Source of the DNA: an uncultured Candidatus Saccharibacteria bacterium
GTDB taxonomy: Bacteria > Patescibacteriota > Saccharimonadia > Saccharimonadales > Saccharimonadaceae
Assembly (NCBI GenBank): GCA_963528915.1
Contig: CAURWV010000003.1
Location: 24,269-88,268 of the forward strand
DNA length: 64,000 bases
Reading direction: 5' to 3'
Below, one piece after another: positions 1 through 19,509 of the stretch; positions within the stretch are counted from its first letter, which is position 1, and every line of letters starts with the position of its first letter. Position numbers and translations under genes: made by a program. The notes under the pieces were generated by a model. That model ran no database searches. It was not told the origin of the DNA and worked only from the letters and a program-made list of their open reading frames with translations.

Positions 1-1976
1 GCACAAACAAATATTTTGATAAATGGAAAGATATTTTCTTGACGATGCTATTAATGTTCCCGATAGTGTCGTTTTTGTTTGGAGCGGCACAATTAGCTGG
101 CTATGCCATTATCGCCAATGCTGGCGACTCATTAATACAGATTATTATAGGTATGGCCGTACAGATAGCGCCAGTCGCTGTTACGCCGCTCATTGTCAAA
201 TTTAGTGGTGGGCTACTAGGTCGAATTGCTGGTGTTATAAATAACCCAAACCGCGGCCTAATTGACCGTACGCGCAATTGGGCGCAAGGTCGCGCAGCTT
301 ATCAAGCATCAAAGGTTCGATCCGGCAAAAATCTCATCAATACCGATAGGGGTGTTTTCAAGAAGTCAAGTAAATTAAGAAAGGCCGCCAACGCTATTAA
401 TAAGTCTCACGGTAGTCGTGCTAACCTAGTCAACTCGGCCGTTCGCGCGCATCACCGCCGCAGTCAACGAATTAAAGGGCTTACTTCCGCTTACGAAGCT
501 GCAGCCGCTAATAATGCTACTGAATGGGATAACAATCGCCACGGCAAATCTTCAGTGCAAGCAGTCGAAGGCGAAAACGAAGCCCGCAAAGCTGAAATCG
601 GCAACAACTTCTACCGCGCACATCATCATCTTACACAACGTCAGCAATTAGCAGATATCGACAAAGCTCGTGCTCAAAACGAATTTAATGAAACTAGCGC
701 TGGGCAAGAAGTTGAAACCGCTCGTCGCACTGTCGAAGCACATAAACAACGTATCACCAACGATCAACAAGCTCGTTGGGATACACTAGCGCAGACAGAC
801 TCAAACCATAAAGCACTCGAGTTAGAGGTTAAGAAGAGTGAATTCGATGCCGCGCGCGCTAAAGAAAAGCTTGGCAAGATGCACGCCGAAATCATTGCCC
901 AGGGCGACCATAGTGAACATGTTATGAACCTGCGCGGTACTGAATCTGATACTTATTCACGAGAACGCGTACTGCATATCGCTCGCGATATCAAGCAGGC
1001 TAATATTGAGACCAACTTGGCTGGTAGCGCCAAACGTGCAGCCGAACAAGAGTTGGCCAGCGAGATTAATTCAATAATGCTCAATAATACTGTTCGTGTC
1101 GATAACAAACCAGCTCGCCAATATGCCGCCGGTATCGGCACTGAAGCGTCAGCACTAGCAGCTAGCGTCACAAAGGCTCGTAAAGAAGCTGGTGATCGCG
1201 TTGCTGAACAAGTCCAGTTATCGTATCACTTCAAGCTTGATGCTGCGCAAATCGAAGCTCTAGCTACTGGTAATTTAGGAACAGATGCCGATGGCAATGA
1301 GATCATGAGCCTAGATGTCGCCGATGATAAAGGTCGCCGATGGTCATTCGACAAGAATGACGAATACGTCCGCGAAATGGCCGTTGATCAAATCTTCGAC
1401 GTAGGTTCATATAAGCAAAAGAAGAAAATCTGGCTCAGCACCGGCATTCATACTGATGAAAATGGTAACAAAATCGTGGGACACAACTACGACCTGCGCC
1501 GCACCGTAAACCAAGCGGCTATCCGCACCAAGTTTATGGAAGCTGGTCCAATGTTCGCCGACAGATCACTCAAACAGCAACTAAATGGTGATTTCACTAT
1601 CCACGACCTATACTACAACTCATACCGTGAGATACTTGAAGGTAAGCTGAAGTCCGGTATCGTCGCCAAAGCTAATGCCGATGCTTTGCAAGATCTGTTT
1701 AGCGACATCAACAGCGCTAAGATGAATAAAGAGCAGTTCGAGCGCCTCATCAACGATAATATTGCTGGTGAATTGAAGAAGCTGCGCAGCAACAACCCGG
1801 CTGCTTCTGATGCTGACGCTCGCCACTCATTGATCAATAAATTCAACGCTAACCGTGAAGCTATGCGCCGAATGGCCGTTGAAGTACTCAAAACACCTAC
1901 CTTGCGTCAGCTATCATCCGATGAAGCGGTGCGTGTCATGAAAGAATTTACTAAGGGTATATACAATGGCGATTAG
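1..1976 (+). CDS. VirB6/TrbL-like T4SS membrane protein paralogue, 5'-truncated by the window edge, with a ~570-aa charged helical C-terminal tail
   Basis: The frame is open from nt 3, with no stop upstream of the listed ATG at 39, so the N-terminus lies outside the window. The first ~65 aa are hydrophobic TM segments that align with the last TM segments of the 1050-aa ORF at 3147 (FDKWKDIFLTMLLMFPIVSFLFGAAQLAG vs FKKWWTVFKATLLVYPTIGLIYGASSLAAG). The remainder is A/E/K/R/Q/N-rich and coiled-coil-like. Stop TAG at 1974-1976. Confidence 0.55.
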   Translation, partial: TNKYFDKWKDIFLTMLLMFPIVSFLFGAAQLAGYAIIANAGDSLIQIIIGMAVQIAPVAVTPLIVKFSGGLLGRIAGVINNPNRGLIDRTRNWAQGRAAYQASKVRSGKNLINTDRGVFKKSSKLRKAANAINKSHGSRANLVNSAVRAHHRRSQRIKGLTSAYEAAAANNATEWDNNRHGKSSVQAVEGENEARKAEIGNNFYRAHHHLTQRQQLADIDKARAQNEFNETSAGQEVETARRTVEAHKQRITNDQQARWDTLAQTDSNHKALELEVKKSEFDAARAKEKLGKMHAEIIAQGDHSEHVMNLRGTESDTYSRERVLHIARDIKQANIETNLAGSAKRAAEQELASEINSIMLNNTVRVDNKPARQYAAGIGTEASALAASVTKARKEAGDRVAEQVQLSYHFKLDAAQIEALATGNLGTDADGNEIMSLDVADDKGRRWSFDKNDEYVREMAVDQIFDVGSYKQKKKIWLSTGIHTDENGNKIVGHNYDLRRTVNQAAIRTKFMEAGPMFADRSLKQQLNGDFTIHDLYYNSYREILEGKLKSGIVAKANADALQDLFSDINSAKMNKEQFERLINDNIAGELKKLRSNNPAASDADARHSLINKFNANREAMRRMAVEVLKTPTLRQLSSDEAVRVMKEFTKGIYNGD

Positions 1977-1999
1977 TACTGACCAGACCTATACGCCAC

Positions 2000-2028
2000 T
2001 TGACTTTTTGCTGAAAAAGGTATACTAT
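2000..2028 (+). promoter_or_regulatory. candidate sigma70-type promoter for the lipoprotein gene
   Basis: TTGACT at 2000-2005. -10-like TATACT at 2021-2026 (15-nt spacer) or TACTAT at 2023-2028 (17-nt spacer). Motif match only. Confidence 0.3.
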
Positions 2029-2030
2029 AA

Positions 2031-2058
2031 GGTTGTACTTATCCTTTAACGTACAACC
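2031..2058 (+). other. perfect 8-bp stem hairpin in an intergenic/5'-UTR position
   Basis: GGTTGTAC (2031-2038), a 12-nt loop, then GTACAACC (2051-2058). No U-tract follows, so it is not a canonical terminator. Function unknown. Confidence 0.4.
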
Positions 2059-2094
2059 ATAAACCACTAATCCAGAGGAGAGGATTGAAGCTTT

Positions 2095-3021
2095 ATGACA
2101 GAAAAAGGAAATAATAAAGAGATCAGCCGCCGCGGTCTATTCGCAGGAGCTGGTATATTGCTGGGGAGTACAGTCATAGCAGCTTGTGCTAGTAACGAGA
2201 CTTCACATAGTGCGCCGTCTAGCACACCTGAAGATTACGAAGTTCCGACATCAACCCCGACACCAGAGATTGACTCTTCGCCGTTTGAGATATCAGAAAT
2301 GATACCCAAGGAACAAGTCGTAAATGTATTCACGCCACCAAAGCGTTCGGAGTTGCCAGGGTCAGCAGAGAATAAAGAAGATTGTGACCAAAGAGCTCAG
2401 GCGTTAATTAGTTACCTAACCAACTCAATAAATCACTACACTAATCCTGGCATGTTCCTGAACGAAAATAAGGGAGAAGATGTAGATAACGACATGGCAT
2501 ATTGGGGCCAGCGCGGCGTCGCGTCTGGGAAAGTTGAAAAGTTTGGCCAGATTTCTGTACCTATTAATTCTTACTTCGAAGGTATATTTCGCGAATCTAC
2601 AGCTAGACCCAACGAGCGTATTTCATCGGAGATGGATAGATTTTATGAAAGATTGCAGAAAGATTTGAATTATAATACCCTTAGAGCGACTCAAAGCGGT
2701 AGGTATTATGAAGAGCAAAAACCAGACGCCTTCGGTACTACAAATAACGAAGAGTATAGACGGCTATATGAGCTTGCTCCAGGCTACAAAATTTCGTATA
2801 GCGAAAACTATTCCGGTATAGCTATAAGTTTTCAAACAACATCAAAATCAAACGCCGAAGGGTGGGATGACGACCATAACGGACGTGAGTTCGGAATCGA
2901 GTGTACACTAGTGCCAGGAATCAGCATAAAAGGCGATCCAAAGAGCCACGGCGATTCAGACCAGTTGTATATTCAAAAGCTTATGATGATACCGCCTATG
3001 GGAGCCGACTTTAGCGATTAG
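2095..3021 (+). CDS. secreted lipoprotein with Tat-like signal, function unknown (within the T4SS-like cluster)
   Basis: N-terminus ISRRGLFAGAGILLGSTVIAAC has a twin-arginine-like SRRxLF motif, an h-region and a lipobox-like IAAC. An S/T/P/E-rich linker and a ~230-aa globular part follow. RBS AGAGGAGAGGA at 2074-2084. Confidence 0.65.
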   Translation: MTEKGNNKEISRRGLFAGAGILLGSTVIAACASNETSHSAPSSTPEDYEVPTSTPTPEIDSSPFEISEMIPKEQVVNVFTPPKRSELPGSAENKEDCDQRAQALISYLTNSINHYTNPGMFLNENKGEDVDNDMAYWGQRGVASGKVEKFGQISVPINSYFEGIFRESTARPNERISSEMDRFYERLQKDLNYNTLRATQSGRYYEEQKPDAFGTTNNEEYRRLYELAPGYKISYSENYSGIAISFQTTSKSNAEGWDDDHNGREFGIECTLVPGISIKGDPKSHGDSDQLYIQKLMMIPPMGADFSD

Positions 3022-3056
3022 TGATTGAAATTTAATTTAATCATCACTTAATTCAC

Positions 3057-3090
3057 AAAAGATACCACCTACTACGGTGGTATCTTTTTC
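3057..3090 (+). terminator. rho-independent terminator after the lipoprotein gene
   Basis: AAAA, GATACCACC (3061-3069), loop TACTAC, GGTGGTATC (3076-3084), then TTTTTC. Perfect 9-bp stem with a U-tract; the A-tract upstream would allow bidirectional function. Confidence 0.8.
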
Positions 3091-3146
3091 ATATCCTTAA
3101 TCTAGTATTTTTCACTATATATTGCTACACTATCTAGTAGATAACC

Positions 3147-6100
3147 ATGAGAAGAATAAAAAAATATTTTCTACTGTTAATTGGAGCGATCTGTCTAATT
3201 TCTCTTGTAGCACTGCCCGCTCAGCGTGCCGCAGCCGAAGACGTACCATGGCCATCAGACACATCGAAAGCTATAACAGCTCTTGATGTTAACATTCTGG
3301 CAACTTGTTTCGGTAACATGAAAGGCGGTGGATATGTTTATTCTAAAGATCTAGATGATAACAAAAAAGGAAATAACTCTATAATCGCACACGGTAAAGT
3401 GCAGTCAGGTATATCATCATATGATGGCGACGGTGGCACTATGAATTGTACTAGTCTATCTAATGCCAGCATTAAAGAAATTTTTAAGGCTGCTGGCTAC
3501 ACTCAAGGTAGTTTGTATGGTATATTCTGTGATGGCACGGGACTAGCCGAATGTAGCGGAGGCTCCGATCAAAAAACAAAAATAGATTACAAAGCCACGC
3601 ATGACGCTCTAGTAAAGGCAGCACCTCTTACAAATGCGTGGAAATATTATTTGACCAGTAGAGTGTTGCATGATCAATGTGGATATGAGGATAGAGGCAC
3701 TGGCGTAAGTAGCGGTGATATGGGAGCGAGCGACGCCACCGCTAAGGTTGTCACTAGTAGCGGCAGTATCGAAGATCACGTCTATCGCCTTAAGGATACT
3801 GGAAAAAGAGTCTACCCTATGCCTATTACCGAATTCAGCGAAGATGGAACAACGTGTAAAGATTTGGTATCGTTCCTAAGCGGAAGCTGGGCGGATGAGT
3901 ACGCAGCCTATATCAAAGGCTTAGGTCTATCAGGAAATAACAACAATGGTGGTGGTAATAATAACGGTGATAATGGTAATGGCGGTGGTGGTAATGACGG
4001 AGAGAATAAAGGCGATGACGAAGAACAGTGCAAAATCGACTACTTAGGTTGGATTCTCTGTCCGATAATAAATACATTAGGAACGATATCAGATGAAGCA
4101 CAGAAACAACTTGAGCAATTTCTACACTTAAGCAATGAAGCGATCATATCTGATAGATCAGAATCTTCGCCATACGCCTATTGGTCGAGGATTCGGGATT
4201 ATGCTAATGTTTTGTTTGTTATTGCCTTCTTGGTCATTATTTATTCGCAATTAACTGGTCGTGGCATAGATAATTACGGCATCAAGAGAATGCTGCCGAA
4301 ACTAATAGCAGGCATTATATTAGTTAATGTATCATTCTACTTATGCGGATTAATGGTAGATTTATCAAATCTGATAGGGAAAGCCGCATATCAATTCATA
4401 ACCGCACCAAAAGCAGGAGATGGCGTCCCAGACGGTTCCTGGTCACAAACCGGTAATACTTTCACAGGTATAGTAGCGACAGCCACCGCCGTTACTGCAG
4501 GTTTATTCGCTATGTCTGCAATTTTATCAGCTTTAATATTTATAAGTATTACGGTTGTAACGACGGTATTTCTACTGGGAGTGCGCGAGGCTTTAGTTAT
4601 ATTATGTGTAATATTATCACCACTAGCCTTCGTCGCCATGCTACTGCCGAACACTGAAAATCTTTTCAAAAAGTGGTGGACTGTATTCAAGGCTACCTTA
4701 TTGGTTTATCCTACTATAGGTTTAATCTATGGAGCTAGTAGCTTAGCAGCAGGGATTCTTCAAGGCAGCGTCTCTGATTTAGATGCAAACAACACAGTTA
4801 GGGTTATTAAACAAGTCTTAGCCGCTGTATTAATGTTCGCTCCATTATTAGCAGTACCAAAACTAATCGCGGCAGCAATGGCTGTCGGCGGCCTTGCCTC
4901 TATGGTTGGAAGGCTTCAGGATCGTGCAAATAAGTTTCTCAACGATAGAGCTCAAAGTAAACTAGATAGTAGTACTTATGGGCAATATATGAAGCATCGG
5001 AAAGAGAAAAAAGCCCTCAGAGATGCCCAGATACAAGGCGGCTCTTTCAAAAGAAGAGGCGGTTTATTAGGACTGCGAGATCGTGCGACCCTTAGGCAAT
5101 TCCGATCTAACAGAAATGCTGGATTTAATAAGAGTAGATTCTCGGGTGATTTTGGAGATAAGCGTTCCTTGTTAGGTAACCAAGCTCTCTTACAAGAAGA
5201 TAACGAACGAATGAAAGCCGCTGATGCTTGGATCGCCAGTAATAATTTCCAATCTAATGAACTGATGACGGCAGCCACAAAAGGTATAGGAGCAGACGGT
5301 AAAAAAATATCGTCTTATCAGCAGCGCGCAGCCATGCGAGCTTTAGCTCCAATCATGACCGGGGATCAGGCAATGCAATTAGCAAATGCTACCAGTGAAT
5401 TCAGTGGTAGCGATCAAGATTCTCTACGCAAAGAAGCTTCCGCAGCTGTCGCTCAAGTGGGGGCCAAAAAAGCTCCATTCCTTGGCGGTAAACAATTAGA
5501 AGCTATGCGACAAGGAAGCTACGATCAGGACGAAGCTATTGAATATTACCTCAAGAATAAAGCCAGCGGCGCTGGTCTAGCGGGCTCAGACAAGGCAGGT
5601 GTCAAAGCAATGGTAGACGCCGCCCAAAAGGCTCAAACTAGCGGCGACAGCTCGATGATGGATAGTTTAGTGAATTCACGCGCCCAGGTTGAATCCAACT
5701 CTAGACTCAAGAGTAGTGTGGGCGAAGGTGTAGCTTCAGAAATTGAACGTATTCCATATAATGGTAAATCCGGCGGTGGTTCTGGCTCTGGCGGCGGTAA
5801 TAGCGGTGGTGGATCCGGCGGTGGTTCTGGCTCTGGCGGAGGCGGTAATAGCGGTGGTGGATCTGGCGGTGGTTCTGGCTCTGGCGGAGGCGGTAATAGC
5901 GGCACGCTAAATGTACCACATGGTGGCAGTATTCCATCGAACAGTAGTAGTTCCGCATTTAGTAATAATTCCTCACCTAGCGGAGGCGGTAATAGCGGTG
6001 GTGGATCCGGCGGTGGTTCTGGCTCTGGCGGAGGCGGTAATAGCAACAATTCCGGAGACAGAGGACCAACGATAATTAATAATTACAATAACCAAACCTT

Positions 6101-6299
6101 TACGACCAACACCAACCAAACGAATAATTTCTCTGGTAACAATAGCGGATCATCAGATAATGGAGCATCATCTCCATCAGCAAGCAATGAGGTTCCGTCA
6201 CAAAAGCCTACTAGACTTGACATAGGTAAATCCAATTCCTTTAACGATGATTACAAAAAACCAAAGCCACCAACACCACCATCAGCTGGACTTGCATAA
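3147..6299 (+). CDS. VirB6/TrbL-like polytopic T4SS membrane protein with a secreted N-domain and a long Gly/Ser/Asn-rich repetitive C-terminal tail
   Basis: Signal peptide (LISLVALPAQRAAA/EDV). A ~300-aa Cys-containing N-domain. An Asn/Gly tract (NNNNGGGNNNGDNGNGGGGNDGE). About 6-7 TM helices between aa ~350-600. A ~450-aa hydrophilic tail ends in GGGSGSGGGGNS repeats and an N/T/S/P-rich end. The VirB6-like call rests on topology, context next to PrgI/VirB4 genes, and paralogy to the ORF at 1-1976. Confidence 0.6.
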   Translation: MRRIKKYFLLLIGAICLISLVALPAQRAAAEDVPWPSDTSKAITALDVNILATCFGNMKGGGYVYSKDLDDNKKGNNSIIAHGKVQSGISSYDGDGGTMNCTSLSNASIKEIFKAAGYTQGSLYGIFCDGTGLAECSGGSDQKTKIDYKATHDALVKAAPLTNAWKYYLTSRVLHDQCGYEDRGTGVSSGDMGASDATAKVVTSSGSIEDHVYRLKDTGKRVYPMPITEFSEDGTTCKDLVSFLSGSWADEYAAYIKGLGLSGNNNNGGGNNNGDNGNGGGGNDGENKGDDEEQCKIDYLGWILCPIINTLGTISDEAQKQLEQFLHLSNEAIISDRSESSPYAYWSRIRDYANVLFVIAFLVIIYSQLTGRGIDNYGIKRMLPKLIAGIILVNVSFYLCGLMVDLSNLIGKAAYQFITAPKAGDGVPDGSWSQTGNTFTGIVATATAVTAGLFAMSAILSALIFISITVVTTVFLLGVREALVILCVILSPLAFVAMLLPNTENLFKKWWTVFKATLLVYPTIGLIYGASSLAAGILQGSVSDLDANNTVRVIKQVLAAVLMFAPLLAVPKLIAAAMAVGGLASMVGRLQDRANKFLNDRAQSKLDSSTYGQYMKHRKEKKALRDAQIQGGSFKRRGGLLGLRDRATLRQFRSNRNAGFNKSRFSGDFGDKRSLLGNQALLQEDNERMKAADAWIASNNFQSNELMTAATKGIGADGKKISSYQQRAAMRALAPIMTGDQAMQLANATSEFSGSDQDSLRKEASAAVAQVGAKKAPFLGGKQLEAMRQGSYDQDEAIEYYLKNKASGAGLAGSDKAGVKAMVDAAQKAQTSGDSSMMDSLVNSRAQVESNSRLKSSVGEGVASEIERIPYNGKSGGGSGSGGGNSGGGSGGGSGSGGGGNSGGGSGGGSGSGGGGNSGTLNVPHGGSIPSNSSSSAFSNNSSPSGGGNSGGGSGGGSGSGGGGNSNNSGDRGPTIINNYNNQTFTTNTNQTNNFSGNNSGSSDNGASSPSASNEVPSQKPTRLDIGKSNSFNDDYKKPKPPTPPSAGLA
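5769..5903 (+). repeat. in-frame tandem repeat, 45/48-nt unit, ~2.9 copies, encoding S-G-G-G-S-G-S-G-G-G-G-N-S-G-G-G
   Basis: Copy 1 at 5769-5813 (45 nt, one Gly codon shorter). Copy 2 at 5814-5861 (48 nt). Partial copy 3 at 5862-5903. The copies are near-identical at nucleotide level. Confidence 0.9.
5982..6044 (+). repeat. dispersed fourth copy of the same Gly/Ser/Asn repeat unit
   Basis: GGAGGCGGTAATAGCGGTGGTGGATCCGGCGGTGGTTCTGGCTCTGGCGGAGGCGGTAATAGC is nearly identical to the unit junction at 5838-5900. It is separated from the tandem block by ~80 nt of S/N-rich coding sequence. Confidence 0.85.
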
Positions 6300-6319
6300 A
6301 TGCGTTATAATAGACGTAT

Positions 6320-7258
6320 ATGGCAGAATACAAAGTAGCACAGGATGTTGAAGCCGAAGATAAATTAATTGGACCATTCAGTTTCCGACAATTTATCTAT
6401 TTGATCGTGGTGGCTATCTGTATCGCCATGGCCTGGGGATTGAGCCAGATTTTTATCGCCTTGGCATTGATACCTCTACCCTTTATATTACTCTTCGGCG
6501 CATTAGCATTACCGCTACGCAAAGACCAGCCAATGGAGATATATCTAGCGGCAATAGTGTCGTATATGTTAAAACCACGCAAGCGTGTGTGGGAACCGGA
6601 CGGTGTTGATTCTCTAATACAGATAACCACACCAGAAGTTGTCGATGAGCACCTCACCAAAGAACTGACTCAATATGAAACCGAAAAACGCCTATCGTAT
6701 TTGGCCAATATTGCTGACACCGAAGGATGGTCGATTCGTCATGCTACCGCACCAGTCCCTAATAGTTCAATGAATCCTGACCAATACTATGCAGCACAGC
6801 AGACTGTAGACGTGATGGATGACGATGGTGGTGTAGCTAGGAAGTTCGACACTATGATAGCTCATGCCGATCAAGATCGCCGTACTCAGATTATGCAAAA
6901 TATGCGTCAAACACAGCCTACATCAGCACCGTTACCGCAGTCGCCAAGCATACCTGACGATCATAGCGATATTCAAAATGGTCGTGTATCAAAATTCAAT
7001 CCGTATCCTACTATTCATCAAACCGTTATACAGCCAAGGAGAACAGACGACAAGCAACCACCACATAATCAAATTAACCAACCTAATACACAGAACCATA
7101 ATGGCGTGAGACAACCAAATATTAGCACTAACATCACGTCAGATGCTATAATGAGTATAGCTAATAATAGCGGTTTGTCAGTCGAGACTATACAGAGGGA
7201 AGTTGACAAGCTCAAGAAAAATAACGATGATAGTGAAATATTCGTATCATTACACTAA
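6320..7258 (+). CDS. PrgI-family (VirB3-like) T4SS membrane protein with a Q/P/N-rich C-terminal extension
   Basis: The N-terminus AQDVEAEDKLIGPFSFRQFIYLIVVAICIAMAWGL followed by a second TM matches the PrgI-family pattern (acidic motif, then a two-helix hairpin). It sits directly upstream of VirB4-related genes. The C-terminal ~150 aa are low-complexity Q/P/N/T-rich. Confidence 0.6.
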   Translation: MAEYKVAQDVEAEDKLIGPFSFRQFIYLIVVAICIAMAWGLSQIFIALALIPLPFILLFGALALPLRKDQPMEIYLAAIVSYMLKPRKRVWEPDGVDSLIQITTPEVVDEHLTKELTQYETEKRLSYLANIADTEGWSIRHATAPVPNSSMNPDQYYAAQQTVDVMDDDGGVARKFDTMIAHADQDRRTQIMQNMRQTQPTSAPLPQSPSIPDDHSDIQNGRVSKFNPYPTIHQTVIQPRRTDDKQPPHNQINQPNTQNHNGVRQPNISTNITSDAIMSIANNSGLSVETIQREVDKLKKNNDDSEIFVSLH

Positions 7259-7270
7259 ATAATAGAAAGG

Positions 7271-8206
7271 ATGGGTATGCCGCCAGATCAGCAGAAACTA
7301 GCGCCGCAATTACCGTCACCGAATAATGTCGGTTCCGGACAAAACCCACCTGTACCGCCTATGAATAATGGCGGTCAAAGCATCAACCAGATGAGCCCCA
7401 ACAGCTCTACTCCGGAAGACCCTAATAGTCAAAACTCTTCAAACTCCAAGAAAAAGAAGCAACAAAAGGCCAAATCAACAAGTACTCAAAACACCTTACT
7501 GTTTTCGGAATTAAGAGATAGTATGGTTATCATGGGTGACGGGTCGTTCCGAGCAGTAGTAGCCTGCAAATCTATCAACTTCGATCTTATGAGTTCGCGC
7601 GAGCGTGATGGCGTCGAGTTGAGCTACCAGGATTTCCTGAATGCCCTGTATTTTCCAATCCAAATATTTGTCCGTTCGCAACGTGTCGATATTGGTCCAT
7701 ATTTAGATAAACTTGAAAGCTTCCGTGTCAACGAAGACAACATGCTTCTAGGTGTACTGATGGACGATTATATCAATTTCATTGATGTACTGTCCCAAGA
7801 GGCGAATATCATGGATAAGAGTTTTTTCGTGGTGATCCCATATTTCCCAACAGGCGACACTGTCAATGTCATGCAGCAAAGTAAAGGATTTTTTTCGATG
7901 GTGTTTGGCGGCAATAAAGATCCCGTCACCAAAATTAATAAAGAAACTTATATCAAAGCTAAGGAAGAAATCAAAAACCGAGTCGATTCTGTAATTGGCG
8001 GTTTAATGCGTGTCGGCGTACAATCTATACAGCTCAATACCAAGCAGCTCGGAGAGCTTTATTATAATATATATAACCCCGATACGGCCGTACGCGAGCC
8101 GCTTGGCGACTTCCACGAGGTAGCCTCGTTGTATGTACGTAAAGGTACCGAGAAAGATAGAGAAAAAGAAGCTAATCCGTTTATCAATAATAGAGGAGTA
8201 TCCTAG
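7271..8206 (+). CDS. soluble protein resembling the N-terminal domain of Gram-positive VirB4/TraE ATPases, with no P-loop
   Basis: An 80-aa P/N/Q/S-rich disordered N-terminus. Then MGDGSFRAVVACKSINFDLMSSRERDGVELSYQDFLNALYFPIQIFVRSQRVDIGPYL, the pattern seen at the start of conjugative VirB4-type proteins. No Walker motifs. The TAG stop (8204-8206) overlaps the GTG start of virB4. Confidence 0.45.
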   Translation: MGMPPDQQKLAPQLPSPNNVGSGQNPPVPPMNNGGQSINQMSPNSSTPEDPNSQNSSNSKKKKQQKAKSTSTQNTLLFSELRDSMVIMGDGSFRAVVACKSINFDLMSSRERDGVELSYQDFLNALYFPIQIFVRSQRVDIGPYLDKLESFRVNEDNMLLGVLMDDYINFIDVLSQEANIMDKSFFVVIPYFPTGDTVNVMQQSKGFFSMVFGGNKDPVTKINKETYIKAKEEIKNRVDSVIGGLMRVGVQSIQLNTKQLGELYYNIYNPDTAVREPLGDFHEVASLYVRKGTEKDREKEANPFINNRGVS

Positions 8207-10059
8207 TGGCGCATAAGAAAAAAGCTGATCCGATAGATATCGCCGCGCAACAACGCGAACGCGAACAAGCCGAAGTAGAGCAGGCATTCTTGAAGGGTAT
8301 GAATACGCTGCGTGATTTGATAGCGCCAAGCAGTCTAGAAATCCACTCAAGCTATTTCCGTATCGGTACTAAATACGGCAGAACTATATATGTCTACGGT
8401 TATCCGCGACTACTATATACCGGCTGGTTATCAGGAGTTATTAATATTGATCAAGTCATCGATATTAGCATGTTTATTTATCCTGTAGATACCGCCGTTG
8501 TTTTAAAGAACTTGCGCAAAAAAGTGACTCAGCTTGAGGCTGATATGGCTCTTAATGCCGAAAAAGGTAAGACTCGCGACCCGGGTAAAGAAGCAGCCCT
8601 AGCTGACGCCGAGGAGTTACGTAATGAATTACAAGTAGGTTCGGAACGTTTCTTTCGTTACGGATTGTATGTAACTATTTACGGCGACAGTCTTGAAGAG
8701 CTGGGCTATATACAGCACACTATCGAAACAATTTTTGGACAAATGTTGATTTATAGTAAAACCGCTTCTAGCCAACAAGAACAAGGTTTAAACAGTACAG
8801 TACCACAAATGAGCGATCAATTACAGATTCGCCGTAATATGAATACTGGAGCAATTAGTACTAGCTTTCCATTTACAAGCGCTGATTTAACTCAAGAAAA
8901 CGGTATTCTATACGGCATTAATATGCACAACAACGGCCTAGTTATCTTTGACCGTTTTACTCTAGAAAATGCCAATATGGTAGTCTTCGCGAAATCTGGT
9001 GCTGGTAAATCATTCACTGTCAAATTAGAAGCCTTACGTAGTATGATGATGGGCGCTGATATCCTAATAATAGACCCAGAAAACGAATATCAAAAGTTGT
9101 GCGATGCTGTCGGCGGCAGTTATACGCGGCTAAGTTTAAGTAGTGATACACGTATTAATCCGTTCGATTTGCCAAAAATAATTGACGGCGACGAAGCAGA
9201 TGACGCTCTGCGCGCTAATCTAGTAACATTACACGGATTACTGCGGCTAATGCTAGGTGGTGCTTCAGCAAATAATGCTGGCATCGGCTTGTCGCCAGCC
9301 GAAGAGGCTGACCTAGATCAGGGATTAATTGACACTTATGCTCGCGTTGGTATTACTAGCGACCCGCTTACGCATACTTCTGTACCACCGACAATGGGTG
9401 ATTTATATGATACGTTATTACACATGGGCGGTACCGGCCCACAGCTAGCGCAGCGCTTACGTAAATATACTACTGGTACTTTTGCTGGTATTTTCAGTCA
9501 GCAAAGCAACATAGATATCAATAATAATATGGTGGTATTCAATATTCGCGATCTCGAAGATGAATTGCGACCAGTGGCAATGTATATCGTCCTTAGCCAC
9601 ATCTGGAATATTGTCCGTACCCAACAGAAAAAACGTATGTTGATCGTCGACGAAGCCTGGCAGCTGATGAAATATGACGATTCAGCGAACTTCATGTTCA
9701 GCCTGGCCAAGCGCGCCCGCAAATATTATTTAGGCTTGACGACTATCACTCAGGACGTCGAAGACTTTATGGGTAGCAAAATGGGCCGCGCTATTGTTTC
9801 GAACTCATCGATGCAGCTACTGCTGAAACAATCATCTAGCGCTGTCGATGTGCTAGGCGATGTGTTTAAATTAACCGAAGAAGAGCGCAAGCGTTTAGCT
9901 AATTTCCCGGTCGGACAAGGCTTATTTTTCGCTGGACAGAACCACGTTCACATCCAAGTCATCGCCAGCGATACCGAGACTGGTTTGATTACTACTAATC
10001 CACAAGCTACCTTACAACAGGCTGCAGCTGCTGCGTCGTCAGAAGGGCAGACACAATAG
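8206..10059 (+). CDS. virB4: T4SS ATPase VirB4 (PrgJ/TraE/TrbE family)
   Basis: Walker A AKSGAGKSF, Walker B MLIVDEAW. Typical VirB4 N-region (GYPRLLYTGWLSGVINID) and C-terminal motifs (TTITQDVEDF, LLLKQ). GTG start at 8206 with RBS AGAGGAG at 8192-8198. Confidence 0.9.
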   Translation: MAHKKKADPIDIAAQQREREQAEVEQAFLKGMNTLRDLIAPSSLEIHSSYFRIGTKYGRTIYVYGYPRLLYTGWLSGVINIDQVIDISMFIYPVDTAVVLKNLRKKVTQLEADMALNAEKGKTRDPGKEAALADAEELRNELQVGSERFFRYGLYVTIYGDSLEELGYIQHTIETIFGQMLIYSKTASSQQEQGLNSTVPQMSDQLQIRRNMNTGAISTSFPFTSADLTQENGILYGINMHNNGLVIFDRFTLENANMVVFAKSGAGKSFTVKLEALRSMMMGADILIIDPENEYQKLCDAVGGSYTRLSLSSDTRINPFDLPKIIDGDEADDALRANLVTLHGLLRLMLGGASANNAGIGLSPAEEADLDQGLIDTYARVGITSDPLTHTSVPPTMGDLYDTLLHMGGTGPQLAQRLRKYTTGTFAGIFSQQSNIDINNNMVVFNIRDLEDELRPVAMYIVLSHIWNIVRTQQKKRMLIVDEAWQLMKYDDSANFMFSLAKRARKYYLGLTTITQDVEDFMGSKMGRAIVSNSSMQLLLKQSSSAVDVLGDVFKLTEEERKRLANFPVGQGLFFAGQNHVHIQVIASDTETGLITTNPQATLQQAAAAASSEGQTQ

Positions 10060-10082
10060 CTTAAAAAGGTTATAATAAACTC

Positions 10083-12941
10083 ATGCCACTGGGTACATCA
10101 AAGAAATCAAACACTGATTACGACGACAACGTCGACAATCTTGACGCCCATAAACAAGAAGTTCAATCGCCAAGCCAGGCGCATTGGGATAATACTGTCG
10201 GTCAAAACCTATCAGGCATGGAAAATAGGAAAAAAAATACCTATAACGATGAAAACTACTCTGATAGCAATGCTGCTAGCGATATAGGCGATCAAGAAAA
10301 TCAATCTAGACAACCTGGATCAGATTGGACAAATAACACATCCAAGAAACGCGACAAAGAAAAAAAAGGTAGAAAAGGTTTTGTTAAACGTTTCGGTGCT
10401 ACTGGCGCTGTTCTTGGCTTATTAACTGGCGGCGTACTTGGCATTGGCGGATCGACAGGCGTCATGGGTTCTTTGCTAATATCTGTAAAAGAACAGGTAA
10501 TGACAGTTCTTGATCAGCAACATTATACTTCTATGTCGCGATCAAATCGTATATTAGTACGGCGTCTAGCTGATGAATCTACAGCAGGGTCATGTACTCT
10601 TATCAAGTTCGCCTGTCGATACACTAAACCAACAAGTTATCAGCTCAAGCAACTAGAGAAATCCGGCATTAAAGCACTCGATAAAGATGGCAATGTTATC
10701 GAAGAGAATAAGCTAATTGGCGGCACCAGGCCAACTCATTACGAAATCGACGGAGAAAAAATATCAGCGAAAGACTTTAAAAAAACAATCAGAGAAAATC
10801 CTAAGGTTCGCAGCGCTTTTCGCCGCGCTCACAATCCGCGCTGGGTTAACTGGGTCGACGATAAAGCAGTTAAGCTATTCGAAAAACTTGGTATCGGTAA
10901 ACGACTATCCGAAAAACTCAGAAAGTCTAAACGTTCTAAGAATGATCTAGCCGAAGTAACCGACGAGTTATCAAAAGCTGAAAACAAATCCGGCGACAAA
11001 ATCAAAAAAGAGATAGCTGATGAAGCCGGGAAATTCGCCGAAAAAGAAGCGAAAAAATCTACCAAAAAGACTCATGACGCCAAGCTAATGATGGCACAAG
11101 TGGTATGTGCTGCTGCACGAGCCCCAAATGTTCTTGTTAATATACAACGTAGCTATCGTATTGCACAATATGCTAAAATTGGCTATCAATTTCTGACTGT
11201 GGCTGACGCTATCAAAAAAGGTAAAGCCACGCCAAAATTAGTCGAAAACGCCGCAACTATCCTGACTCAAACCTACAAAAAATCCGACGGCACTATCAAA
11301 AAATCAGCTATGGACTCTAGTTTGATGAAATATAGTTTAGGCTTGGGTGTATCTGGTAATAAATCATCATACATACCAGGCGTCGGCGGCACTATGGCTA
11401 AGTATTTACAAATCGTCAATAGCGGCGCTGTCAAGACCGGTTGCGATTTGGTTAGCTCGACAGCCGCAGAAGTCGCAGTCGCCGTATTTGACGGTATCAA
11501 AAATGGATTGGGACCTATAGGCTGGGCGTGGACAGCTGGTGAATTCGCTATTGAGGGCATTCTATCTATCGACAGTGTGCAAAAAAAGATCAGCGAAGGG
11601 ATAGGCGATATTGTACAAACCGCTGTCGACAAATTCGGAAGTCTAGTTGATTTTAATAAAATCGCTGAGTATTTCCTTGGCGACAAAACCAAAGGAGCGA
11701 TTGGCACTGATATTGGTGATATAAGCGGTATTGCCTGGTCAAATAGTATGGCTGACCAAGCCAGCTACGTTGGGAATTCACCACTCACCCTACCGCAAAA
11801 AGCCGCCTACGACGAACATATCGTCAAACCGGAACGCGTAGCTATGGCCGAAGAAGATCGCTTAAATCACAGCCCGTTTGATATATCTAGTCCGAACACA
11901 TTTCTAGGCTCTATAGCTATACGATTCTTACCATATTTAGGTTCGGTCTCAAATCCTTTATCATTCATCTCTGCGATTTCATCAATCTCTAGTTCATCCT
12001 TATTCAATTTCACTAGCCCAGCAGCTTACGCCAAAAACGTCATTAACTCTAACAAATGCAGTCAAGATGCACTGCTAGCAGCTGAATCTGACATAGCCGT
12101 CGGACCAGCCTGCGATGTGCAATATGGCATACCAAATGAATACATGGGTATCGAGCCTGACCAAGTAGCTAGCGAGCTGAATTCAATGGGGCAAATAGAC
12201 GAAGATGGCAACATCGTAGATGGTAGTGAATTAAAAGAATGGACAGAAACCTGTAATGTGGCCAGCAGTATAAATATCAAAGGATGTGTCGTTAATGAGA
12301 GAAAATACGCATTGTTTGGTCTATACCAGATTGACAAACGGGCGATAGACGATATGGACGAGGATCCCGACGCATTCAAAAATGGATCGCTAACCCAAGA
12401 ACAACAATCAGAAGAAGAGAATTCATCTGGCGCTAGTTCGGCTATTGGCGAGCCAGAATTTGAGCAAGCCCAACCATTATCAGAAGCAGAATCAAGAGGC
12501 GATCCAGATAACCCAACGTGGCCAGGCAAAGAGAATGGCAAAATCGCCGACTCTGATCTAGCAGAATTATCCTTTGCTCCTGGACAAAGGATGTATAAAC
12601 AAGCAGCAGAAGCTATGGAAGAAATGAATAAAGCCTACAAAGCAGAAAAGGGTGCAGACTTCCAAGTAAATTCAGCTTACCGCTCCTTCGAAGAACAAGA
12701 AAAACTATTCTCAAGCGGCCAAACTGCAGCTAGAGGCGGTAGATCAAACCATGGTTGGGGGTTAGCTATCGATATCCAGGTAGGCGACTTTGGTTCAGAT
12801 ATTTATAATTGGCTTAAAGCGAACGCTCACAAATACGGCTTCGTACACCCGCCTTGGGCAGAGCCAGCACCTGCTCAACCTGACGGCAAAAGACACCAAC
12901 CCGAGCAATGGCATTGGGAATATGCTAGGAGAGTATACTAA
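10083..12941 (+). CDS. large membrane-anchored protein with a C-terminal M15 (VanY-type) zinc D-Ala-D-Ala carboxypeptidase/peptidoglycan hydrolase domain
   Basis: ~100-aa disordered N-terminus. One Gly-rich TM (GATGAVLGLLTGGVLGIGG). A ~650-aa domain of unknown family. The C-terminus carries SAYRSFEEQEKLF, SNHGWGLAIDI and EQWHWEY, matching the VanY/M15B SxYRS, SxHxxGxAxD and WH motifs. Confidence 0.8.
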   Translation: MPLGTSKKSNTDYDDNVDNLDAHKQEVQSPSQAHWDNTVGQNLSGMENRKKNTYNDENYSDSNAASDIGDQENQSRQPGSDWTNNTSKKRDKEKKGRKGFVKRFGATGAVLGLLTGGVLGIGGSTGVMGSLLISVKEQVMTVLDQQHYTSMSRSNRILVRRLADESTAGSCTLIKFACRYTKPTSYQLKQLEKSGIKALDKDGNVIEENKLIGGTRPTHYEIDGEKISAKDFKKTIRENPKVRSAFRRAHNPRWVNWVDDKAVKLFEKLGIGKRLSEKLRKSKRSKNDLAEVTDELSKAENKSGDKIKKEIADEAGKFAEKEAKKSTKKTHDAKLMMAQVVCAAARAPNVLVNIQRSYRIAQYAKIGYQFLTVADAIKKGKATPKLVENAATILTQTYKKSDGTIKKSAMDSSLMKYSLGLGVSGNKSSYIPGVGGTMAKYLQIVNSGAVKTGCDLVSSTAAEVAVAVFDGIKNGLGPIGWAWTAGEFAIEGILSIDSVQKKISEGIGDIVQTAVDKFGSLVDFNKIAEYFLGDKTKGAIGTDIGDISGIAWSNSMADQASYVGNSPLTLPQKAAYDEHIVKPERVAMAEEDRLNHSPFDISSPNTFLGSIAIRFLPYLGSVSNPLSFISAISSISSSSLFNFTSPAAYAKNVINSNKCSQDALLAAESDIAVGPACDVQYGIPNEYMGIEPDQVASELNSMGQIDEDGNIVDGSELKEWTETCNVASSINIKGCVVNERKYALFGLYQIDKRAIDDMDEDPDAFKNGSLTQEQQSEEENSSGASSAIGEPEFEQAQPLSEAESRGDPDNPTWPGKENGKIADSDLAELSFAPGQRMYKQAAEAMEEMNKAYKAEKGADFQVNSAYRSFEEQEKLFSSGQTAARGGRSNHGWGLAIDIQVGDFGSDIYNWLKANAHKYGFVHPPWAEPAPAQPDGKRHQPEQWHWEYARRVY

Positions 12942-14071
12942 TGAAGAAAAACTACTTATTGCTGTTTGTGACGGTAATAACCGCATTGTTTACTACTCCC
13001 AGAGCCTACGCTCTAGAAATACCAGATGCCAACAACGATATACTTTTCTATTCAGAAAAAGCGGCTAGTGGCTGTAGTAATGCTACCGGTGAACTAGTAG
13101 GTAACGATAATCTCGAGAAAATATACAACTATTTCATATCGCAAGGATTGTCTCCAGAGCAAGCTGCCGGTGTAGTCGGTAATATAGCGCAAGAATCAAA
13201 AGGCGACCCGACAATAGTTGAAGGAGGTAATCACACTGAAGACCCATCTGGTGTTAGTGGTGGATGGGGAATTATCCAGTGGACTCCAGGGTCAAAAGTT
13301 CTCGGTATCGCTAAGCAGGCTGGTATTACTGGTGACATATCGAAACTCGAAACTCAACTCCAAGTCGTCTGGTGGCATATGACCACACAGACACCGACTG
13401 GCGTTGCTAACTTCATCGAACAATACAAAACAGTCACTGATGTCAGAGCAGCTACCGACTTGTATGAGAAAAAAATGGAAGCCGCCGGCATACCTAACAT
13501 GGCGAACCGCTACGCTGCCGCCGAGCTAGCCCTCAGCACATATGGTAAGGGGTCGTCTACCACCACATCGTCTGGGAAAAATTGCGGTGGTGGCGCGGTA
13601 GCTGGCAGTGCCATCGAGACAGCCAAAAACTATGCCTGGCCAACATACGAAAGAGGTAAGACTGAGAAAAAACCCGAATACGAAACTGCTATTCAAAAAA
13701 CAAAATCAGAAGGCGGATTCGTCGGCGATAGTTGTTTCGGCGGCGGAGTCGATTGCGGCGCCTTCGTCACTCGCGTCATGCAGGATAGTGGTGCTGACCC
13801 AGAATACAACCCCGAAAAAGGCAACACTAGCGCACAGCTGAACTATGCTATGAATAGTCCAAAATACGAAAAAGTCGACCCTGGCGACGTTAAACCTGGC
13901 GATATTGCAATTCGCTCTGGACACACCTATCTATACATCGGTGAGGTTGAAGGTTTCGAAACACAGGTGGCATCTGCATCACAATGTGAACATGCGCCAA
14001 TGTCAGCACATGAAGGTGTTGGCGACCCGTCATACTCTTGGTTTAGACTAAAGGGAGGTTCCAAAGAATGA
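12941..14071 (+). CDS. secreted bifunctional cell-wall hydrolase: lysozyme-like (phage tail-tip lysozyme type) N-domain plus NlpC/P60- or CHAP-like cysteine peptidase C-domain
   Basis: Signal peptide ending PRAYA/LE. LSPEQAAGVVGNIAQESKGDP...GWGIIQWTPGSK matches the tail-tip-lysozyme family pattern. The C-domain has DCGAFVTRVM (catalytic Cys context) and GDIAIRSGHTYLYIG (His context). Its ATG shares one nt with the upstream TAA stop (12939-12941). Confidence 0.78.
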   Translation: MKKNYLLLFVTVITALFTTPRAYALEIPDANNDILFYSEKAASGCSNATGELVGNDNLEKIYNYFISQGLSPEQAAGVVGNIAQESKGDPTIVEGGNHTEDPSGVSGGWGIIQWTPGSKVLGIAKQAGITGDISKLETQLQVVWWHMTTQTPTGVANFIEQYKTVTDVRAATDLYEKKMEAAGIPNMANRYAAAELALSTYGKGSSTTTSSGKNCGGGAVAGSAIETAKNYAWPTYERGKTEKKPEYETAIQKTKSEGGFVGDSCFGGGVDCGAFVTRVMQDSGADPEYNPEKGNTSAQLNYAMNSPKYEKVDPGDVKPGDIAIRSGHTYLYIGEVEGFETQVASASQCEHAPMSAHEGVGDPSYSWFRLKGGSKE

Positions 14072-14700
14072 ATTACGAAAAAAGGAGATTAATTATCATT
14101 ATTGCAGCAGCAGTGTTTGTTGTCGCTATACCGGTAATATTATACATAATACAGCTAATAAACAATGCCGATAAAGTTCGTATTACTATCACTACTTCGC
14201 CGACCGACGCCAAAGTTTACATTGATGGTAAAGAGACTAGCCACGATCTATACGTAACGCCGGGCAAGCACGCTGTCTCAGCTAAAAAAGATGGTTTCAA
14301 GGATGCTGAAACTTACCAATATTTTTCGAAAGACAGTGATAGTACTACTTTAGTATTATCACCTAATTCCGAAAAGGCTAGAAAATGGGCGAAAAACCAT
14401 TCATCAGAAATACAACGTGCCTACGACATAGCAGCTAACCAACGCGGTAAAGCGATGCGCGAACAATACAAAATTATGAACATCTTGCCACACACTGACA
14501 TATCAGGCCCGTATAAAATTAGCTATTCCTACTATGGCCGCGACTATACCGATATAAAAGTTTATATATCGTATTCCACACCATCCGGGCGCAAGGCTGC
14601 TCTAGCTTGGCTAAAAAGTAAAGGTTATGATCCAACTACGCTCAACATAGCAATCAGAAGTTACGTTAATCCACTGACGGGGAAAGTCTATGACAACTAA
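14068..14700 (+). CDS. bitopic membrane protein with an extracytoplasmic PEGA domain
   Basis: N-terminal TM (LIIIIAAAVFVVAIPVILYII). Then ITITTSPTDAKVYIDGKETSHDLYVTPGKHAVSAKKDGFKDAE, which matches the PEGA pattern. ATGA overlap with the upstream gene. Confidence 0.6.
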   Translation: MNYEKRRLIIIIAAAVFVVAIPVILYIIQLINNADKVRITITTSPTDAKVYIDGKETSHDLYVTPGKHAVSAKKDGFKDAETYQYFSKDSDSTTLVLSPNSEKARKWAKNHSSEIQRAYDIAANQRGKAMREQYKIMNILPHTDISGPYKISYSYYGRDYTDIKVYISYSTPSGRKAALAWLKSKGYDPTTLNIAIRSYVNPLTGKVYDN

Positions 14701-15310
14701 ACGTATTTTATCAATTATTTCAATAATTGTTGTTTCGATTATACTGATTATAATTATAAACTTTGTTTCTTCGCATTCGCTAGTGCAAGTTAATTTCGAA
14801 AACACTTCTAGTGTTGTCGCCTACAGCGATAAAGATAGGAATAATAAAATTGCCGTTTCACGATCTGGCGATCGAGTATGGCTTGCCAAAGATATCAAAT
14901 ACTCTATAGAGTACAAGGGTAGTAACGGCTACGCAAACGGAAATATAACTGCACAGCACCCATTTGATACAATCTCAATTAAACCAGATTACTCGGCCGA
15001 GAAGTATAAGTCGCTTATGTCGGCAGCACTGCCCGACATCAACTCCTTAATTCAAGATAAATATCCGAAAGCTAAAGAATCATACGCTATCCAGCCTAAA
15101 GCTATGCGCGATTTCGGCAAATGGTTCTTAATTGCACTCAAATACACCAAAGAATATAGTACCAAATCCGACACACTATATATTCTTGCTACAAAAGACA
15201 ACTCAAAATGGACACTCAAAACAAACGCTGAGGTATTTTTCCGCTCAAACGATTACCGATCAATTAATACCGAAATATTGTCGTGGGCTAATGAGCAAAT
15301 TATTAAATAG
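14690..15310 (+). CDS. bitopic membrane protein, unknown function (possible VirB8/TcpC-like scaffold)
   Basis: N-terminal TM (ILSIISIIVVSIILIIIINFV) followed by a ~170-aa alpha+beta extracytoplasmic domain. It overlaps the upstream gene by 11 nt and is the last gene of the plus-strand cluster. Confidence 0.5.
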   Translation: MTTKRILSIISIIVVSIILIIIINFVSSHSLVQVNFENTSSVVAYSDKDRNNKIAVSRSGDRVWLAKDIKYSIEYKGSNGYANGNITAQHPFDTISIKPDYSAEKYKSLMSAALPDINSLIQDKYPKAKESYAIQPKAMRDFGKWFLIALKYTKEYSTKSDTLYILATKDNSKWTLKTNAEVFFRSNDYRSINTEILSWANEQIIK

Positions 15311-16310: not shown

Positions 16311-16311
16311 A

Positions 16312-17412: not shown

Positions 17413-17680
17413 AATTATTACCTTAATTCCTTTTTATAATTTAGTAACGTTTATAGTAGGTATTGTGGACAATGGGGAAAAGTATGATTTTAACAGATGA
17501 AAACAGTCATACTTAGCAGGAGGAAAATTAGCGGAAAAATAGCTGGAAGTATGTAGTAAAAATAGATAGTTTATCCACGCAGATACTGTCTGTGATATCA
17601 GATAGCACCAAACGGTGGATAAATGAACACAGTTTTTACTCGAAGCTTTGAACTGGATGTACACATTTTTTACACAGATA
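17413..17680. other. dnaA-dnaN intergenic origin segment (DnaA boxes plus an AT-rich stretch)
   Basis: DnaA-box-like 9-mers: TGTGGACAA at 17464-17472, TTATCCACG at 17571-17579, GGTGGATAA at 17614-17622. A strongly AT-rich stretch at 17411-17460. Non-coding 268 bp. Confidence 0.55.
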
Positions 17681-19039: not shown

Positions 19040-19060
19040 TTTGATGATGTATACCCTCAC

Positions 19061-19451: not shown

Positions 19452-19500
19452 ACAGTAATGTCGAGTAATTAAGGAATGGTGCCAGCTATTGGTGCCATTT

Positions 19501-19509
19501 TGTTATAAT
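19501..19509 (+). promoter_or_regulatory. extended -10 element (TGTTATAAT) upstream of rnpA
   Basis: TGnTATAAT match located 15 nt upstream of the rnpA ATG. Motif only. Confidence 0.3.

Follow-up and report, generated by a model that had tools for sequence, protein, structure and literature searches.

We have analysed a stretch of 64,000 nucleotides (hereafter the window) from an uncultured Candidatus Saccharibacteria bacterium (contig CAURWV010000003.1, positions 24,269 to 88,268 of the forward strand), whose left end carries a gene cluster for a type IV secretion system (T4SS) next to recF, dnaN and dnaA. In the open reading frame (ORF) scan, ten ORFs fill positions 1-15310, all of them co-oriented on the plus strand, with a coding density of 98% and successive intergenic gaps of 118, 125, 20, 12, -1, 23, -1, -4 and -11 nt. 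A promoter and terminator scan of positions 1-19600 gave counts at chance level and was uninformative on the operon structure. An earlier note, made from the DNA letters, had read these overlapping or abutting genes as a T4SS core, and both the ORF layout and the profile matches given below bear this out. We are highly confident that the cluster is an origin-proximal, relaxase-less chromosomal T4SS of the type typical of Saccharibacteria (Patescibacteria), and that it is non-conjugative. The locus is a rediscovery of a published system, one more orthologue rather than a new kind of system: an 'apparent T4SS (SEML1_0006-0019)' was reported by Wang et al. 2023 (Cell) in Southlakia epibionticum ML1, where transposon sequencing (Tn-seq) found it essential for growth on the host (PMC10633639).

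The VirB4 ATPase (8206..10059) is a short form of 617 aa. It is matched by P-loop_TraG (PF19044, 6.5e-29), by the NCBIfam model NF045971 'VirB4-like conjugal transfer ATPase, CD1110 family' (374.6 bits, cut-off 325) and by the VirB4 structure PDB 4AG5 (1.5e-45). Its Walker A (AKSGAGKS) and Walker B (MLIVDE) motifs are both intact, and it is the sole P-loop protein among the ten of the cluster. Judged by these profile scores, the VirB4 of the locus is a member of the CD1110 (MPF_FATA-type) family. The exact VirB4 and DnaA sequences have been deposited from one Candidatus Nanogingivalaceae metagenome-assembled genome (MAG), with accessions seven apart, which fits the gene order. We accordingly place the locus in a Candidatus Nanogingivalaceae genome. 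In that NCBI record (MCD1275697.1), the VirB4 is named merely 'DUF87 domain-containing protein' and the T4SS is left unflagged.

The gene directly upstream (7271..8206) encodes a 311-aa protein, and its stop codon overlaps the virB4 start by 1 nt, an arrangement of translational coupling. The earlier note had taken this protein for a bitopic scaffold, a reading that fails, since the protein has no transmembrane (TM) helix and is TrsD-like, resembling the N-domain of VirB4. Its NCBIfam matches are weak (TrsD, E 0.0021; VirB4_plasma, E 0.0019, profile positions 91-232), and a precomputed match to the TraC-like family PF26593 is also on record. The adjacent VirB4 maps to positions 286-893 of the same VirB4_plasma profile. 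Since the two proteins cover successive parts of one profile, VirB4 appears to be encoded here as two translationally coupled genes. Homologues of the TrsD-like protein likewise adjoin short VirB4s on plasmids of Pontibacillus (7.5e-28) and C. perfringens (5e-22). A PDB profile search with the TrsD-like family returned nothing relevant, and hhalign of this family against one full-length Brevibacillus VirB4 was not significant (E 0.14), with the aligned segment lying at the expected N-terminal place. Further upstream, the 312-aa membrane protein encoded at 6320..7258 is PrgI/VirB3-like, with PF12666 matching residues 5-91 at E 2.3e-11 (44.5 bits, cut-off 27); it has one TM window in the scan and a long hydrophilic C-terminal tail.

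Two genes, A and B, encode large polytopic proteins that we assign as VirB6/TrbL-like. Only the 3' two-thirds of gene A are present at the window edge (1..1976, ORF from 39). The left flank was therefore read from a metagenome contig that shares 13,021 nt with the window at 100% identity and extends 7.9 kb upstream; on it, gene A occupies positions 6799-9882, starts 1108 nt left of the window and encodes 1027 aa in full length. In the TM scan the product is an 'extended VirB6': a signal peptide and an N-terminal exodomain come before about seven TM helices, and the hydrophilic tail has 590 aa. Gene B (3147..6299, 1050 aa) encodes a signal peptide, a 290-aa exodomain, six TM helices and a tail of 470 aa, in which low-complexity repeats of the GGSGGGN type occur. 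The DNA of this tail (5700-6200) consists of tandem coding repeats, with GGSGGGN/GSGSGGG runs followed by an Asn/Ser/Thr-rich stretch, and the tail is disordered and repeat-variable. The tails of the VirB6-like proteins in S. epibionticum have been assigned ARM-repeat-like folds (PMC10633639).

Genes A and B are paralogous, with 32% identity over a 330-aa membrane core (E 3e-55). PF04610 covers both cores at sub-threshold scores (gene A, E 0.0023, profile positions 6-206 of 215; gene B, E 0.11, positions 25-208 of 215). Among 44 Saccharibacteria orthologues or paralogues of these proteins, TrbL was the sole recurrent family, with 11 matches (best 3.2e-06). A precomputed PF19590 (TrbL_3) match on full-length gene A was not reproduced, as our own Pfam scan gave no family, and hhalign of the VirB6-like family against one CD1112-family VirB6 was not significant (E 0.24). 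We regard the TrbL/VirB6 identity of the two proteins as moderately supported and as weaker than the other assignments. As for the profile support expected by the earlier note, the PrgI assignment stood at its 44.5 bits; that of VirB6 was sub-threshold for each protein singly and positive at the family level (11 of 44).

Two wall hydrolases follow VirB4. The first gene (10083..12941) encodes a 952-aa envelope protein with a C-terminal VanY/M15 DD-peptidase domain (PF02557, E 4.5e-15, residues 836-948), preceded by a hydrophilic N-terminus, a Gly-rich hydrophobic segment and a mostly helical central region of about 650 aa that has no assigned family; the central domain of the S. epibionticum counterpart is likewise without assignment (PMC10633639). 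This protein is a candidate for the role of the VirB1-like wall hydrolase. It has been proposed that non-VirB1 hydrolases may fill the VirB1 role, and the S. epibionticum homologues of the peptidase and the lysozyme, encoded downstream of virB4, were cited in this respect (PMC12102498). Many homologues with 64% identity span only 80% of the length and have no VanY domain, which indicates that the hydrolase module at the C-terminal VanY position is exchanged between closely related Saccharibacteria lineages; such exchange may track differences in cell-wall chemistry. AlphaFold2 (AF2) modelling of the protein from a low-diversity alignment of 21 sequences gave a predicted local distance difference test score (pLDDT) of 34 and was unusable. 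We also considered whether the 952-aa protein could be a degenerate coupling protein, and rejected this, since it has no P-loop.

The second hydrolase is a secreted lysozyme of 376 aa (12941..14071), matched by PF18013 (Phage_lysozyme2) at 4.6e-29. Its C-terminal Cys/His region resembles NlpC/P60, as read from the sequence only; the counterpart in S. epibionticum, SEML1_0006, has been assigned lysozyme-like and cysteine-proteinase folds (PMC10633639). Next come two single-pass membrane proteins. That encoded at 14068..14700 (210 aa) has an N-terminal TM helix and a PEGA domain (PF08308, 5.2e-07), and its counterpart SEML1_0005 is an essential PEGA protein (PMC10633639). The last gene of the operon (14690..15310, 206 aa) encodes a TM helix at residues 6-24 and is the positional counterpart of SEML1_0004; its product has no Pfam or NCBIfam match, and tblastn found it in only 5 of 80 related loci. 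These 80 are species-representative Saccharibacteria loci with VirB4s 80-95% identical, and they served as the comparison set throughout.

Between genes A and B lies a gene for a 308-aa lipoprotein (2095..3021) that has no Pfam or NCBIfam match. It combines an RRGLF...AAC signal and lipobox with a linker rich in Pro, Thr and Ser and a globular domain of some 200 aa. Relatives were found in 2 close clusters by single-sequence search and in 7 by profile search, all of them in the closest lineages. In 34 loci, the slot just ahead of the second VirB6-like gene nevertheless codes for a lipoprotein of about 290-350 aa, and jackhmmer ties 13 of these 34 to the 308-aa protein. Like the other accessory envelope proteins, this lipoprotein is, on the evidence of these comparisons, fast-evolving. 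A PDB profile search with its family returned nothing relevant, and an AF2 model from 8 aligned sequences (pLDDT 34) was unusable, so that its pattern of helices followed by four strands, although it would fit an NTF2-like fold, carries no weight. The positional counterpart SEML1_0012 is non-essential; it has a twin-arginine translocation (TAT) signal, and its NTF2-like domain was matched to ECOD e4ec6D1 (PMC10633639). A Pfam check of all ten proteins, as the earlier note had proposed, thus matched PrgI, VirB4, VanY, lysozyme and PEGA. Of the parts that it had listed as having no recognisable family, the lipoprotein and the hydrophilic tails are partly resolved through their S. epibionticum counterparts in the literature, and the central domain of the 952-aa protein is still without a family.

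The earlier note had also suggested extending the window leftward. On the metagenome contig, the true start of the cluster comprises the full gene A, which the window edge had cut, and then a divergent array of six VirB2-like pilin genes outside the window (PF18895, confirmed by our own scan). The six pilins are divergent in sequence, and each has a signal peptide and two hydrophobic helices. Beyond them lie genes for HSP20, a ComF-like phosphoribosyltransferase and a seventh pilin. Such an array raises the question of whether the apparatus is an attachment organelle, in which a VirB2-type pilus would chiefly hold the epibiont on its host with no substrate translocated. The six divergent pilin genes that adjoin the cluster are essential in S. 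epibionticum, sequence-variable pilin arrays fit an adaptation to host surfaces (PMC12102498), and no substrate-recruiting ATPase is present, all of which favour this idea. However, Saccharibacteria already have two type IV pilus systems for adhesion and motility (PMC12206443), and a VirB4 more conserved than DnaA, together with two large extended VirB6 proteins, suggests an active translocon beyond mere pilus assembly. We consider pure attachment improbable and rank it below the export and import functions weighed further below.

To the right of the cluster, recF, dnaN and dnaA are confirmed by Pfam on the minus strand. Together with an 84-aa ORF they occupy 15303..19060, convergent with the T4SS operon, and the dnaA start (19060) is 3.7 kb from the operon end. 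The stop codons of the last T4SS gene and recF overlap by 8 nt, leaving no room for a terminator between the operon and recF. The dnaA-rpmH intergenic region (19061..19523) is a candidate oriC with four DnaA boxes, two of them perfect. Across the window, 30 DnaA boxes were found against 15.9 expected; they are clustered around dnaA, with clusters at 19101-19228 (perfect copies at 19199 and 19220) and 17464-17622. The GC skew is flat to the left of dnaA and positive to the right. Since it has no clean minimum, the origin was placed by gene order and DnaA boxes. The statement of the earlier note that the cluster abuts recF-dnaN-dnaA at the chromosomal origin is confirmed by the Pfam matches and the DnaA-box clusters.

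Two side observations concern this region. The dnaA-dnaN spacer, in which three near-consensus DnaA boxes also lie, is filled by the 84-aa ORF (17434-17688, minus strand). Conservation of this ORF is about 51% and confined to the closest relatives, and it may be either a small protein or an artefact of a conserved origin segment. In addition, the T4SS operon runs toward the origin and is thus head-on to the leftward replication fork. To keep a long essential operon head-on beside oriC is unusual, and the published discussion consulted here names gene dosage only.

Comparison of the 80 loci shows how firmly this arrangement is kept. The order PrgI, TrsD-like protein, VirB4, large hydrolase and lysozyme is retained throughout. 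Among the 51 loci that hold at least 9 kb of downstream sequence, 45 have dnaN/dnaA within 5-9 kb downstream, and in every locus holding both (45 of 45) the T4SS operon is convergent with recF-dnaN-dnaA. The median identity in the related loci is 84% for VirB4, compared with 72% for DnaA, 61% for DnaN and 48% for RecF; the TrsD-like protein stands at 65%. Partners exposed on the envelope have diverged much further: the lysozyme is at 32% and the 952-aa protein at 27%, and the lipoprotein can hardly be detected. Since VirB4 is more conserved than DnaA and the cluster keeps the same origin-side site, the pattern marks an indispensable core function rather than a mobile element. The domesticated core-genome apparatus postulated by the earlier note is in this way borne out, by the 45 of 51 origin-linked loci, by the VirB4 and DnaA identities and by a synteny comparison of the kind it had called for, in which the 80 loci share the cluster neighbours.

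No relaxase, type IV coupling protein (T4CP), integrase, partition or mobile-element replication-initiation gene was found in the ten cluster genes or in most ORFs of at least 100 aa at 22-62 kb; three of the ORFs scanned matched no Pfam family, and the scan ended at 62 kb and skipped a few smaller ORFs. The annotation of the 7.9 kb upstream likewise names no relaxase, coupling ATPase or integrase. The repeat search found only coding repeats and the pilin paralogues, with no flanking repeats resembling attachment (att) sites, and the only tRNA of the window, at 57739, is 42 kb from the cluster. The earlier note had pointed to the absence of these genes, repeats and tRNAs, which agrees with our results in the scanned genes. 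It had further held that a relaxase, a T4CP and an integrase with attachment repeats immediately upstream would turn the locus into an ordinary integrative and conjugative element (ICE), and none is annotated there. The ICE reading was rejected, since mobility genes and att repeats are missing from the examined regions and the same site is used in most related species.

A weaker form of this idea is that the cluster is a mobile-element remnant, the transfer module of an ICE or a decayed plasmid whose relaxase, T4CP and integrase lie outside the examined sequence. In its favour, the VirB4 family is otherwise typical of conjugative elements, and our inspection was limited to about 72 kb around the cluster. 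Yet the same genes in the same order recur beside recF-dnaN-dnaA across dozens of Saccharibacteria species, with VirB4 80-95% conserved; integrase, adjacent tRNA and flanking repeat are all lacking; the GC content of the cluster (0.39-0.47) falls inside the range seen elsewhere in the window; and the flanks are housekeeping genes, with HSP20 and the ComF-like gene on one side and recF on the other. We thus regard a remnant as highly improbable.

The published Saccharibacteria system agrees with the locus gene by gene. Starting from recF, S. epibionticum has genes for a small exported protein, a PEGA protein, a lysozyme, a DD-peptidase, VirB4, a protein of about 290 aa and PrgI, in the order found here. 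They are followed, again as here, by genes for a polytopic protein of about 1000 aa, a protein of about 280-310 aa with a TAT/lipoprotein signal, a TrbL/VirB6-like protein of about 1000-1090 aa, six pilins, HSP20 and a ComF-like protein. Its cluster also adjoins dnaA-dnaN-recF and has no relaxase or T4CP inside. The mapping to SEML1_0003-0021 was made by order, length and domain only. The accessory proteins have diverged too far to be matched directly by sequence. The differences are in detail: S. epibionticum belongs to a different Saccharibacteria family, its lysozyme has 643 aa with a glucosaminidase domain (376 aa without it here), and the last gene of its operon encodes 249 aa (206 aa here). 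According to Wang et al., the S. epibionticum T4SS, which stands nearest to Gram-positive conjugative systems, includes an array of pilins but no recognisable coupling protein or relaxase, and within SEML1_0004-0019 every gene except SEML1_0012, in the lipoprotein slot, scored as essential (PMC10633639).

The same features have been described across the phylum. Quiñonero-Coronel et al. 2025 (Microb Genom) found a Patescibacteria-wide VirB4 clade related to MPF_FATA, with TrsD, PrgI, VirB6 and VirB2-like pilin arrays (PMC12102498). In their survey, relaxases are nearly absent and the T4SS is close to dnaA, dnaN, rnpA and rpmH (PMC12102498). All traits that define this clade are present at the locus, which differs from it in nothing of substance and is one more Saccharimonadia member. 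The Patescibacteria T4SS is also covered by a 2025 FEMS review (PMC12857230). The view in the earlier note that textbook models leave the architecture unexplained was thus overstated, since the system has been described, shown to be essential and surveyed phylum-wide (PMC10633639, PMC12102498, PMC12857230).

Outside the phylum, the nearest plasmid VirB4s are only 30-38% identical, the closest being that of Embleya (37.6%). The CD1110/CTn2-type MPF_FATA modules of Firmicutes and Actinobacteria share the core order of VirB6-like protein, PrgI, VirB4 and large wall hydrolase, but they are plasmid-borne, have a shorter VirB6 and no annotated pilin array, and are not origin-linked. On the Embleya plasmid NZ_CP108778, a T4CP gene and a replication-relaxation gene come directly after VirB4, where the wall hydrolases stand here. 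On the CD1110-type Brevibacillus plasmid NZ_CP144923, MobC, a relaxase and a VirD4-like gene precede the VirB6-PrgI-VirB4-hydrolase core. Unlike the split form described above, the VirB4 of the Brevibacillus, C. botulinum and Paenibacillus elements is one polypeptide of about 800 aa.

A closer look-alike is found on the megaplasmid NZ_CP062975 of Pontibacillus sp. ALD_SL1 (locus L090, 7477-17030). As at the Saccharibacteria locus, this module has PF18895 pilins (two), a TrbL-like protein (779 aa) and a PrgI/TraL-like protein, together with the TrsD-like homologue (7.5e-28), a short VirB4 of 621 aa (37% identity, 1.9e-122) and a wall hydrolase of 1050 aa. No relaxase or T4CP is annotated within 12 kb of it in the PLSDB gene table, which is incomplete, and the replicon is typed as non-mobilizable. 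It differs in belonging to a free-living Firmicute, in lying beside flagellar genes on an 898-kb replicon, in having one VirB6-like gene, and in carrying M23 and NlpC/P60 domains instead of VanY. A split VirB4 is also found on C. perfringens pJFP838A (locus L091, 1518-4824). The pilin-bearing architecture with a split VirB4 may therefore not be unique to Patescibacteria. Pilins and a split VirB4 occur together in the Pontibacillus module, with neither a relaxase nor a T4CP annotated within 12 kb, which hints at a wider, hitherto unrecognised class of such systems.

The apparatus very probably descends from monoderm conjugation machinery (MPF_FATA, with a CD1110-type VirB4) and is now a core apparatus beside oriC. 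In the mechanism that we propose, the short VirB4 and the separate TrsD-like N-domain protein would dock on PrgI/VirB3 and the two extended VirB6 paralogues, forming the membrane translocon, and local opening of the peptidoglycan would fall to the VanY-type peptidase protein and the lysozyme. Envelope-spanning accessory roles would be taken by the PEGA protein, the 206-aa single-pass protein and the lipoprotein, and the six upstream VirB2-like pilins would build an extracellular pilus or tube extending to the host bacterium. We infer this assembly, as well as the transport direction and substrate discussed next, from the sequences, and the essentiality for epibiotic growth would carry over by analogy from the Tn-seq of others in S. 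epibionticum (PMC10633639).

As for function, we lean toward export of effector proteins into or onto the host, tentatively and with less than even confidence, placing it somewhat above import. In the import scheme, a VirB2-type tube would pierce the host envelope and VirB4 would power the inward movement of host RNA, nucleotides or other macromolecules. No T4CP or relaxase is present in or near the cluster, and a reversed direction would explain the absent coupling protein; it would also explain the essentiality and the exceptional conservation of the system. Saccharibacteria have no nucleotide synthesis, and in S. epibionticum ComEC is dispensable and the T4SS essential, which makes the T4SS a candidate route (PMC11665869, PMC12857230). 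A 2026 preprint has further described host-RNA uptake and possible T4SS-pili tubes in another member of the phylum (10.64898/2026.06.21.733656), although the link to the T4SS in that work is only morphological. Bordetella Ptl, Brucella VirB and Helicobacter ComB demonstrate that a T4SS is workable without a VirD4 coupling protein, and ComB, through which Helicobacter pylori takes up DNA, that it can run in the import direction (PMC12857230, PMC11665869). Unlike the Saccharibacteria system, these three are diderm MPF_T systems with a VirB7/9/10 outer-membrane core, are only distantly similar in sequence and are not essential for growth.

On the other hand, the sequence of the locus gives no sign of the transport direction, and most T4SSs export. 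No gene for a nuclease, a nucleic-acid-binding protein or a ComEC-like channel is found inside the cluster, and the upstream ComF-like phosphoribosyltransferase is non-essential in S. epibionticum (PMC10633639). Import is thus conceivable but rather unlikely. The chance of some function other than export, import or attachment is slim, slimmer than that of attachment. Equally, it is doubtful that the apparatus is an import machine and that, at the same time, the Patescibacteria-type T4SS is a branch of a wider non-conjugative, pilus-forming class of monoderm T4SSs. The roles that the earlier note had put forward, a conduit for effectors or nutrients and DNA uptake, are already in print: a 2024 perspective proposes effector delivery or nucleotide acquisition (PMC11665869).

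Several points weigh against our identification of the cluster as a non-conjugative, origin-linked T4SS with a role in epibiotic life. A distant T4CP or relaxase may lie elsewhere in the genome, the inspected sequence being about 72 kb around the cluster, and a T4CP homologue, remote and non-essential, is known from S. epibionticum (PMC12102498). Origin proximity is common and not universal, as 6 of the 51 loci have no dnaA nearby. The VirB6 assignment draws on sub-threshold single-sequence matches together with family-level and literature support, and the kinship of VirB4 was judged by profile scores and identities. A VirB8-like subunit with the NTF2 fold is not confirmed, the lipoprotein model having reached a pLDDT of only 34. 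Finally, the requirement for epibiotic growth would be carried over from S. epibionticum alone (PMC10633639).

Beyond dnaA, rpmH and rnpA diverge from it and are followed on the plus strand by yidC and the genes for LemA and, before it, a KH/R3H protein. Housekeeping genes make up the remainder of the window, with a large envelope-polysaccharide cluster, a LexA-like gene and NrdD/NrdG. The polysaccharide cluster (22003-55422) contains many glycosyltransferases, a Wzm/Wzt ATP-binding cassette exporter, Wzy, a priming transferase, dTDP-sugar genes and a pyruvyl transferase; amid the glycosyltransferases, at 25794-27715, is a succinyl-CoA-ligase-like pair (ATP-grasp_2/Ligase_CoA). The GC content is 0.36-0.39 at 30-40 kb, compared with 0.45-0.52 further to the right, which suggests that the low-GC part is a variable or horizontally exchanged segment.

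The practical value of the locus lies in the correct annotation of its VirB4, which stands as 'DUF87' in NCBI. For specialists, it adds comparative points: a VirB4 more conserved than DnaA, an operon that always faces the origin and a look-alike module in a Firmicute. The Saccharibacteria T4SS to which it belongs is the first T4SS reported to be essential for its own carrier, and is one of the few molecular handles on how the ultrasmall epibionts belonging to the candidate phyla radiation live off other bacteria.

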